This document shows positions 40,006 to 40,235 of a stretch of 64,000 nucleotides of DNA, one piece after another (the stretch's first letter is position 1; each line of letters opens with the position of its first letter). The translations under genes and the position numbers were made by a program. The notes under the pieces are model-generated. The model saw only the letters and a list, made by a program, of their open reading frames with translations, had not been told where the DNA came from and ran no database searches. The stretch is from Escherichia coli (GTDB taxonomy: Bacteria > Pseudomonadota > Gammaproteobacteria > Enterobacterales > Enterobacteriaceae), in assembly GCF_050920415.1 (NCBI RefSeq), contig NZ_CP169309.1. The stretch is one strand, 5' to 3'.

Positions 40006-40235
40006 GTTGTTGGCTGAGTGAATATACCCGGCGTTGCGCCGGGTCTGTGAACTAAGAATAAATTTTAGGTAACTGTTCCTGAAGTACAGGCGTCATCGGC
40101 GAAGTCAGACCGGATACCGCCAGCGCACAGCAACCGGAGCGTACTTAAGTACGTGAGGATTGCGAGCACTGCCGGGATTCGGGCTGGCGAGTGAGATAGC
40201 CTGAGCAGGAGTAAATATAAGGGACATACTTAGCT

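Follow-up and report, generated by a model that had tools for sequence, protein, structure and literature searches.

The stretch of DNA analysed here, referred to as the window, comprises 64,000 nucleotides (nt) of one strand of the Escherichia coli contig NZ_CP169309.1, with positions numbered from its first letter. Our subject is the spacer between nuoL and nuoM, two genes of the nuo operon for complex I. Over 801 bp around the site, the sequence matches E. coli strain MFDS1022581 at 100% identity; in this strain the flanking genes are annotated as nuoL and nuoM. The other adjacent nuo genes in the region examined either overlap by 4 nt or are separated by gaps of 6-14 nt. The open reading frame (ORF) coordinates and these neighbour spacings bear out the 230-bp gap within a tightly packed operon, to which a first-pass annotation made from the letters alone had drawn attention. 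The same annotation described the spacer, apart from a GC-rich palindrome, as non-coding. This is true, but it overlooks the main feature, a conserved 136-nt palindromic repeat element that fills this part of the spacer. From left to right, the nuoL stop codon is followed by a 20-nt leader, a GC-rich hairpin (module 1), an A+U-rich linker, the long palindrome (module 2) and 24 nt that contain the ribosome-binding site (RBS), before nuoM starts (Table 1). We conclude with high confidence that the spacer consists of two structure-forming modules that are transcribed within the nuo polycistronic mRNA. We are equally confident that module 2 belongs to a dispersed palindromic repeat, of which it is a fixed copy forming a long irregular hairpin that ends 24 nt before the nuoM start. 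A literature search on the nuoL-nuoM intergenic region found nothing.

When the spacer was compared by blastn with 5426 complete E. coli genomes, the part corresponding to 40087-40204 (82-199 of the spacer) was found to recur at 77-80% identity, with other E. coli copies located at pheM-pheS, qseE-qseG and pyrH-frr. A genome has a median of 4 such places, and the family amounts to ~5 copies per genome. The family profile hidden Markov model (HMM) matches 40074-40211 with an E-value of 4.5e-36, and this is the sole copy in the window. Moreover, a search for the exact 23-nt core CAGCGCNNAGNAACCGGAGCGTA in GTDB genomes, with each species represented by one of them, gave at least 120 loci, a sample that is biased by the requirement for an exact core match. 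An HMM built from four E. coli copies confirmed 119 of the 120 loci listed, and it is to these listed loci that the statements on hosts, contexts and shared sites below refer. The hosts include Escherichia, Salmonella, Citrobacter, Klebsiella, Enterobacter, Pluralibacter, Pantoea and Erwinia, and further Serratia, Yersinia, Pectobacterium, Dickeya, Rahnella and Aeromonas. In addition, a 234-bp contig of a Methylobacterium mesophilicum assembly (L079) is near-identical to an E. coli copy (L035) and is probably an enterobacterial contamination. Many copies have terminal inverted repeats, TAAGAGCCTATCCCA...TGGGATAGGCTCTTA, and a full length of ~150-157 nt, while the length of the element ranges from ~120 to 157 nt across the family. 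The copy in the window is shorter (136 nt) and has diverged ends, in which only TTCCTG...CAGGAG is left of the terminal repeats.

The spacer is predicted to fold more stably than its shuffled versions on both strands (z = -4.6 for the + strand and -3.8 for the - strand), and the larger share of this signal comes from the 136-nt palindrome. RNAalifold predicts a single long irregular hairpin for an alignment of 91 copies of the family. In this alignment, 96.6% of the cells are in standard pairs, compared to 20-38% when the partners are slid by 1-3 columns. Compensatory double changes are seen in 16 of 31 pairs, and none of 500 shuffles reaches any of the observed measures. The analysis was also done for 12 orthologous nuoL-nuoM copies: 97.5% of the cells are paired, 12 of 40 pairs show compensatory changes and the controls are far lower. 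Four of the five measures are reached by none of 500 shuffles and the fifth by two of them. The middle helix, for example, has CG in six sequences and UA in five. Because only nuoL-nuoM copies were compared, this covariation reflects substitutions at one locus, and compensatory substitutions at an orthologous locus are what is expected of a structured cis-acting RNA. The nuoL-nuoM copies have the same orientation in at least 13 further loci, which belong to Escherichia, Salmonella, Citrobacter, Pantoea, Winslowiella and two metagenome-assembled genomes (MAGs) of Enterobacteriaceae, one of them binned as Klebsiella; additional Salmonella alleles, described below, likewise have the element at this site.

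Module 1 is the palindrome CCCGGCG-TTG-CGCCGGG that the first-pass annotation had placed at 40027-40043, and it lies exactly there. An extra A-U pair lengthens it to a perfect stem of 8 bp. Among 2000 dinucleotide shuffles of the spacer, only 2 have a stem that is as good, the standard being 8 bp or more, of which 7 or more are G-C pairs. The absence of a U-tract after the stem was also seen correctly: the 3' sequence, CTGTGAACTAAG, has no T-run, and a scan of the spacer for intrinsic terminators found none, module 1 failing at the U-tract. Positions 1-81 of the spacer, which include module 1, have no second match in the 5426 E. coli genomes searched by blastn. This rules out that module 1 is a repetitive extragenic palindromic (REP) sequence or a bacterial interspersed mosaic element (BIME), since REPs are highly repeated. 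It nevertheless resembles them, as it fills the slot that a REP sequence occupies in the K-12, Citrobacter and Salmonella alleles and is, like them, a GC-rich stem-loop without U-tract shortly after a stop codon. The window hairpin is, however, shorter (19 nt versus ~35 nt).

We examined 12 spacers, and each of them has a stable stem-loop that begins 1-25 nt past the nuoL stop codon, but the sequences of these stem-loops are unrelated. At this position, four Pantoea species have the stems GGGUAGGU/ACUUACCC, GGGGCGGG/CUCGCCCC, GGGGGCG/CGCCCC and GGAAGAGAAG/CUUCUCUUCC, Winslowiella has GGGGUGG/CCACCCC, and Citrobacter and K-12 have a REP sequence. None of the 12 hairpins is immediately followed by a U-tract, and in every species the first hairpin gives way to an A+U-rich stretch. 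In the window, this linker is mostly unpaired in both the minimum free energy (MFE) and the centroid fold, save for a short local hairpin. Conservation of the palindrome, which the first-pass annotation had named as a point to be checked, is therefore seen at one level only: its sequence cannot be aligned between genera, but there is a hairpin at the same position in every species examined. Since the position is kept while the sequence turns over, this pattern argues for a putative selected RNA hairpin rather than a canonical terminator.

Table 1. Positions of the sequence features in the window (dG, predicted folding free energy).
Feature	Position	Strand	Remarks
nuoG RNA motif (RF01748)	32995-33037	+	Rfam 50.3 bits, gathering score 33; upstream of nuoG, same operon
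nuoL coding sequence	38164-40005	+	ORF list; stop codon TGA at 40003-40005; annotated nuoL in the 100% identical E. coli record
nuoL-nuoM spacer, 'A1' allele	40006-40235	+	230 nt between the nuoL and nuoM ORFs
Module 1, stem-loop ACCCGGCG-TTG-CGCCGGGT	40026-40044	+	dG -14.4 kcal/mol; imperfect extension 40017-40053
A+U-rich linker (CTGTGAACTAAGAATAAATTTTAGGTAACTG)	40045-40075	+	mostly unpaired in predicted folds
Module 2, imperfect palindrome of 136 nt	40076-40211	+	copy of dispersed repeat; dG -61 kcal/mol; centre GTACTTAAGTAC (40141-40152)
Apical domain of module 2 (CCAGCGC..AG.AACCGGAGCGTAC / GTACGTGAGGATT.CGAGCACTGCC)	40120-40173	+	columns invariant or >=90% conserved in 91 copies
Right flank	40212-40235	+	nuoM RBS AAGGGA at 40219-40224
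Weak promoter-like site ATAACA-17-TATATT	40214-40242	-	9/12; 1 found versus 0.4 expected in shuffles; no evidence of function
nuoM coding sequence	40236-41765	+	ORF list; 100% identical annotated E. coli record

The 230-nt allele of the spacer is found in 723 of the 5426 complete E. coli genomes (13%). Its carriers are scattered and include O157:H7, enterotoxigenic E. coli (ETEC), avian isolates and the BL21 derivative BAP1; 28 of 29 sampled carriers are 100.0% identical. The other 87% of E. coli have a 163-nt K-12-type spacer, which has essentially nothing in common with the 230-nt allele and shows ordinary single-nucleotide polymorphisms. Exact-protein look-ups via NuoK, NuoJ and NuoI gave access to further backgrounds. 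Salmonella has alleles of 76 nt, which contain neither the element nor a REP sequence, of 230 nt (arizonae), and of 251 nt, which contain both a REP sequence and the element, as in Citrobacter. In a 313-nt allele the 251-nt version is expanded by a nested module of 62 nt (7746-8058 in L152/L156/L157). Finally, there is a 250-nt Salmonella allele (L151) in which a divergent lineage of the element lies between K-12-type flanks. When this allele is aligned with the element-less ones, the flanks are the same and the ~123 nt between them are missing from the latter.

Because L151 combines K-12-type flanks with the element, and because Erwiniaceae carry the element at the same site, these alignments make the K-12-type spacer a probable deletion derivative that keeps the REP hairpin, and we reject the view that it is the ancestral 'empty site'. 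Independent re-insertion of the element at the same nuoL-nuoM site is a formal alternative. In the element-less alleles, the Shine-Dalgarno sequence of nuoM is still closely preceded by a small hairpin that covaries (GGUCC-UGAC-GGGAC; AGGCCUCUG-UCA-GAGGCCU). We also noticed that, within the first 27 nt of nuoM (40236-40262), four synonymous-looking differences (positions 7, 16, 22 and 27) are linked to the spacer allele. They are common to the element-less alleles of E. coli and Salmonella, whereas the carriers in E. coli, S. arizonae and Citrobacter mostly have the other state. These changes could reflect hitch-hiking or co-adaptation of the translation-initiation region.

E. whittamii and S. 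arizonae (6 of 6 genomes) have the same 230 nt as the E. coli window at every position, at a coding divergence of ~12%. Compared with S. arizonae, differences reappear 9 nt upstream and 36 nt downstream of the spacer, at the background frequency of ~11 per 100 nt; the right boundary of identity is less telling, as the nuoM start is conserved in all taxa. The right flank is the same in every A1 allele of E. coli, Salmonella and Citrobacter. Together with the element, it is 94-100% identical among E. coli, Salmonella, Citrobacter and an Enterobacteriaceae MAG, compared to 85-89% for the coding flanks. Between two Salmonella alleles the element and its right flank are 80% identical and the coding flanks 94%. 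The apparent genealogy of the alleles is in conflict with the species phylogeny. Constraint alone is the less likely cause of the 100% identity with S. arizonae, considering that the pheM-pheS copy differs by ~4% between E. coli and E. whittamii (several positions, counted by eye), that Citrobacter, in which the left part is another one, shows 6-7 differences over 163 positions, and that the element itself is 20% apart between Salmonella alleles. Because the pheM-pheS copy, a member of the same family, diverges between E. coli and E. whittamii, we favour short-patch interspecies exchange or a long-lived trans-specific polymorphism over constraint alone as the probable origin of this identity. 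As a side observation, nuoL is called as two split ORFs in the S. arizonae genomes L145 and L147, and so is nuoG in L147, which suggests frameshifts or assembly errors in their complex I genes.

What might the two modules do? Our favoured reading, to which we give a probability of about 45%, is that the two co-transcribed RNA-structure modules set the processing and the stability of the nuo mRNA. An mRNA processing or stability element had been among the first suggestions for this spacer and is the best supported of them, in view of the hairpin that keeps its position in 12 of 12 spacers; processing itself we infer. The two hairpins bracket the single-stranded A+U-rich linker, which might serve as an entry site for RNase E. 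We propose, with moderate confidence, that cleavage by RNase E in the linker, or by RNase III in the long duplex, would split the ~15-kb transcript. Module 1 would then be a barrier to 3' exonucleases for the nuoA-L segment, as REP sequences are; that REP hairpins act in this way is established and is credited to Newbury et al. in 1987. The long hairpin would provide a structured 5' end of the nuoMN segment while leaving the RBS free, and, taken together, these steps would adjust how stable and how well translated the two segments are relative to each other. Element-less E. coli keep a reduced version of this design, consisting of the REP hairpin, an A+U-rich linker and the small hairpin before the Shine-Dalgarno sequence.

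In support of this proposal, nuoL and nuoM are co-directional genes of one operon, and there is neither a promoter signal on the + strand nor a terminator signal in the spacer. Further conserved sites of the element, among them dnaN-recF and one upstream of rpoD, likewise lie in spacers within housekeeping operons. Moreover, other co-transcribed miniature transposable elements with inverted repeats (MITEs) have been reported to alter the fate of mRNAs, the Correia elements through RNase III and enterobacterial repetitive intergenic consensus sequences (ERIC) in Yersinia through RNase E (review PMC10969869), which makes the processing model plausible. The nuoG RNA (RF01748), a curated cis-regulatory motif upstream of nuoG, provides a precedent for conserved hairpins in the same mRNA.

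An internal promoter for nuoMN had been proposed as well; it would free the expression of these genes from the nuoA promoter. The spacer is long enough to accommodate one, but between 39700 and 40500 the + strand has no sigma-70-like match, other sigma factors not having been part of the scan. Almost the whole spacer is taken up by stable secondary structure, and the replacement alleles of 163 and 76 nt share no candidate -35 and -10 boxes with the 230-nt spacer. We consider such a promoter highly improbable.

Most insertion sites of the family are lineage-specific singletons, and a few are common to several genera. The latter include nuoL-nuoM (at least 14 loci, the window included), dnaN-recF (at least 9), a glutamine amidotransferase/SIS-domain gene pair (at least 4) and sites next to rpoD, ruvC, dnaX and argH, the rpoD copy being upstream of the gene. 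A crude ORF-based gene call places 82 copies between co-directional, 19 between convergent and 10 between divergent genes; because only 10 are in divergent contexts, the copies appear to avoid promoter regions. Many copies are flanked by TTA/TAA, as seen without a systematic analysis. Terminal inverted repeats and dispersed copies with presence/absence polymorphism between strains are the features of a MITE, and the family profile is that of a MITE-like repeat of which a few old copies have become fixed in housekeeping operons.

Two further observations concern the other sites of the family. The dnaN-recF copies, which occupy the second most conserved site after nuoL-nuoM among the loci listed, are always antisense to the genes. 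They are found in at least 9 loci from Pluralibacter, Citrobacter, Pectobacterium, Serratia, Siccibacter, a Klebsiella-binned MAG and an unclassified Proteobacteria MAG. Moreover, some copies contain a nested module of 61-63 nt between GTGAGGAT and CGAGCAC, which is homologous and located at the same point in unrelated loci from Salmonella, Pluralibacter, Pectobacterium, Klebsiella and Yersinia (L152/L156/L157, L023, L031, L037, L046, L085 and L086). It has small hairpins whose stems covary between copies, and thus defines a structured 'long form' of the element that is analogous to the long forms of ERIC. The long form matches the Aggregatibacter RNA AaHKsRNA22 (RF02902) on the reverse strand with 28.7 bits, below the gathering score of 39.8.

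Several results weigh against a role of the element in the processing of the nuo mRNA. The co-directional copies split 42 to 40 by orientation. Across the family, the folding energy is equal on both strands and shows no selection for the transcribed one, and the asymmetry between G-U and A-C is the same for sense and antisense copies (31:9 each, Fisher p = 1.0). Because copies occur in both orientations, fold equally well on either strand and have a wobble asymmetry that does not flip, nothing across the family as a whole indicates that selection acts on the host transcript. Template switching can, moreover, produce covariation in palindromic DNA without any selection on RNA. The element is dispensable: it is absent from 87% of E. 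coli and from the common 76-nt allele of Salmonella, and thus not needed for complex I. The subunits of this complex are present 1:1, and why its two mRNA segments should differ in stability is not obvious. Finally, cleavage, stabilisation and any effect on the NuoL:NuoM output are all inferred.

The element could instead be a passenger, namely a non-autonomous MITE that landed between nuoL and nuoM a long time ago and was tolerated as harmless. Its hairpin would be kept, without any benefit to the nuo operon, by features of the element itself and of DNA palindromes, such as constraints inherited from the master copy and 'quasipalindrome correction', in which one arm is copied to the other by template switching, and the small post-nuoL hairpin would be a separate, ordinary 3'-protective stem. 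Such a history would account for the anatomy of a MITE with its terminal inverted repeats, for several copies per genome at mostly lineage-specific singleton sites, and for the use of both orientations without strand preference in folding or orientation-dependent wobble. It would also fit with the fact that most E. coli and some Salmonella do without the element, which is lost by clean deletion, and with a structured long form carrying a nested module, as known for ERIC. It is more difficult to reconcile with the same site and orientation being kept in two families of bacteria, with compensatory changes at this one locus, with an element that is more conserved than the coding DNA flanking it, and with the concentration of the conserved sites in spacers of housekeeping operons. 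Moreover, the apical internal loops are invariant in 91 copies, whereas template switching would tend to erase such imperfections. We regard a mere passenger as somewhat unlikely.

The conservation of the apical domain extends to unpaired positions and internal loops in the alignment of 91 copies. A related arrangement was observed outside the enterobacteria: MAGs of Burkholderiales, Rhodoferax and Polaromonas contain hairpins of ~150 nt whose apical 60 nt are near-identical, while their lower stems are unrelated in sequence and self-complementary (L012 5680-5880, L030 12520-12710, L077 1210-1410 and L128 13630-13840). Those of L077 and L012 score 38-41 bits on the Rfam model of the Xanthomonas small RNA (sRNA) sX9, discussed below. 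The apical domain might be recognized, at the level of DNA or by a protein, as a candidate binding site for a transposase or recombinase, for a nucleoid protein or for an RNA-binding protein that acts on the transcript of either strand, with the variable lower stem only presenting it. This would explain why ~54 apical nt, unpaired positions included, are invariant or at least 90% conserved in 91 copies, why the domain sits on different self-complementary lower stems in the Polaromonas, Rhodoferax and Burkholderiales MAGs and occurs in a symmetric version in Xanthomonas, and why function appears to be independent of orientation. The invariance could, however, also reflect recent spread from a single master copy, and no candidate protein was identified, a cognate transposase not having been looked for. 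We consider this explanation quite unlikely.

A related proposal is that the element is a domesticated portable module rather than simply a transposon in decay. Its apical domain would be the putative ligand of a conserved protein or RNase, and the element would have come to serve housekeeping operons as a signal for processing or regulation. Selection on the nuoL-nuoM cassette would be so strong, or its exchange between genera so easy, that all letters agree in E. coli, E. whittamii and S. arizonae, and alleles with and without the element would be maintained together across species. We regard this as doubtful.

Among the known families, the element is probably the old 'RSA' repeat of K-12, a palindromic intergenic repeat reportedly covered by the surveys of Bachellier, Gilson and Hofnung; length and copy number are what this assignment is based on. 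Full-length members of our family measure ~150-157 nt, and six places were found in the K-12 derivative ER1709 with the 158-nt pheM-pheS copy as the query, in agreement with the 150/151 bp and 6 copies given for RSA in the original K-12 annotation table (PMC5172473). K-12 has no copy at nuoL-nuoM, however, and the copy in the window therefore lies outside catalogues based on this strain. The current MG1655 and W3110 records contain no RSA repeat feature, including at pheM-pheS. In the literature we found RSA in the copy-number table only, with neither a sequence nor a coordinate, and the core motif occurs as a text string in no searchable paper.

The centre of the palindrome, GTACTTAAGTAC, had suggested ERIC, also called the intergenic repeat unit (IRU) or MITEEc1. 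This candidate was rejected: the primers ERIC1R and ERIC2 fail to align, forced alignments reach ~45% identity, and the family HMM (nhmmer --max) gives no match at E <= 100 on a locus with a 100% ERIC core. The likeness is one of form. Both are imperfect palindromes (~127-136 nt) in transcribed intergenic DNA of enterobacteria, occur in both orientations, are present or absent between strains and have long forms with internal insertions, and effects on mRNA decay have been reported. ERIC is, however, commoner in the same genomes, with a median of 9 places compared to 4-5 for the present element. The RU-2 (YPAL) and RU-3 (a BIME) of Delihas are different sequences. The Correia repeat-enclosed elements of Neisseria are likewise palindromic MITEs of ~100-150 nt that are co-transcribed and whose long hairpins are processed by RNase III. 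They differ in being unrelated in sequence and host and far more abundant, and RNase III cleavage of the present element is only hypothetical. Finally, the nuoG RNA is a conserved hairpin in the same enterobacterial polycistronic mRNA, but it has another sequence, a length of 43 nt and another location and is single-copy rather than dispersed.

At gathering thresholds, Rfam finds nothing in the spacer, nor does it have a model for the repeat family. The only consistent match is to sX9 of Xanthomonas (RF02228), on the reverse strand, where the window copy scores 16 bits (E = 4.8) and its relatives 25-41.6 bits, all below the gathering score of 44. The two agree in the apical palindrome, GGAACCGGAGCGTAC...GTAC..CCGGTTCC, and in a portion of one arm. 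sX9, however, is a stand-alone sRNA of 75 nt, with a mapped transcription start site and a Northern signal (PMC3300014, Table 1), whereas the element is a palindrome of 136 nt located within an operon. sX9 is also one of the three 'sRNAs' with the highest abundance in all bacterial genomes (PMC9029176), which suggests that the model picks up a repeat rather than a dedicated gene. Xanthomonas codiaei (L095) has two sX9-like sequences within 6.3 kb, at 46-68 and 6273-6364. One of them, GGAACCGGAGCGTAC-GAGCG-GTACACGCCGGTTCC, immediately follows a stop codon and is a symmetric palindrome, and the other scores 41.6 bits on RF02228, just below the gathering score.

The small RNA mentioned in the first-pass annotation could accordingly be thought of as antisense: transcription of the reverse strand would produce an sX9-like sRNA directed against the nuoL-nuoM junction and ending at the reverse complement of module 1. 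The strand fits, since relatives of the window copy match RF02228 on it with E-values down to 1e-4 and the long form matches AaHKsRNA22 on the same one, and sX9 itself is an sRNA with a Northern signal. The weak promoter-like site on the - strand (40242-40214) adjoins the element and would drive precisely the strand that resembles sX9. All of these Rfam matches are, however, below gathering scores, the similarity lies in a palindromic apex, which makes the strand assignment soft, the promoter-like site matches at 9 of 12 positions with 0.4 expected by chance, and the abundance of sX9 in all genomes points to a repeat rather than to a dedicated gene. An antisense sRNA at nuoL-nuoM is thus, in our view, rather improbable.

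Elsewhere in the window, two tandem matches to naRNA4/CssrE, a REP-derived nucleoid-associated RNA (RF02564, 75-81 bits), are located on the + strand at 2072-2142 and 2163-2233. The ORF list also contains small reverse-strand ORFs of 34-65 amino acids.

In kind, the element is familiar: a strain-variable palindromic intergenic repeat, together with a REP-like hairpin, in the spacer of an operon. What lifts it above the routine is how deep and precise its conservation is at one junction, an apical domain that is conserved across bacterial classes, and an allele that is letter-perfect across genera and has a conflicting tree. For annotation, it means that a long, seemingly 'empty' gap in a packed operon is in fact a hairpin plus a repeat element. 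The K-12 reference has no such insert, and maps of nuo regulation that are based on K-12 therefore fail to describe O157:H7, the BL21 lineage and many other strains. For databases, at least two RNA-seq-defined 'sRNA' families of Rfam, namely sX9 and perhaps AaHKsRNA22, look like pieces of the present, uncurated repeat superfamily. If the element is indeed a portable module, the operons concerned would include nuoL-nuoM, dnaN-recF, pheM-pheS, pyrH-frr and the region upstream of rpoD, and its apical domain would be conserved from Enterobacterales to Burkholderiales and Xanthomonas, on lower stems that are interchangeable. The identity across genera and the contradictory allele tree point to short-patch exchange or a very long-lived polymorphism. 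Finally, the filled (230 nt), empty (163 and 76 nt) and expanded (313 nt) alleles at a single junction of nuo, an essential respiratory operon, in E. coli and Salmonella constitute a natural experiment, which makes the long-debated effect of palindromic repeats on their host testable.

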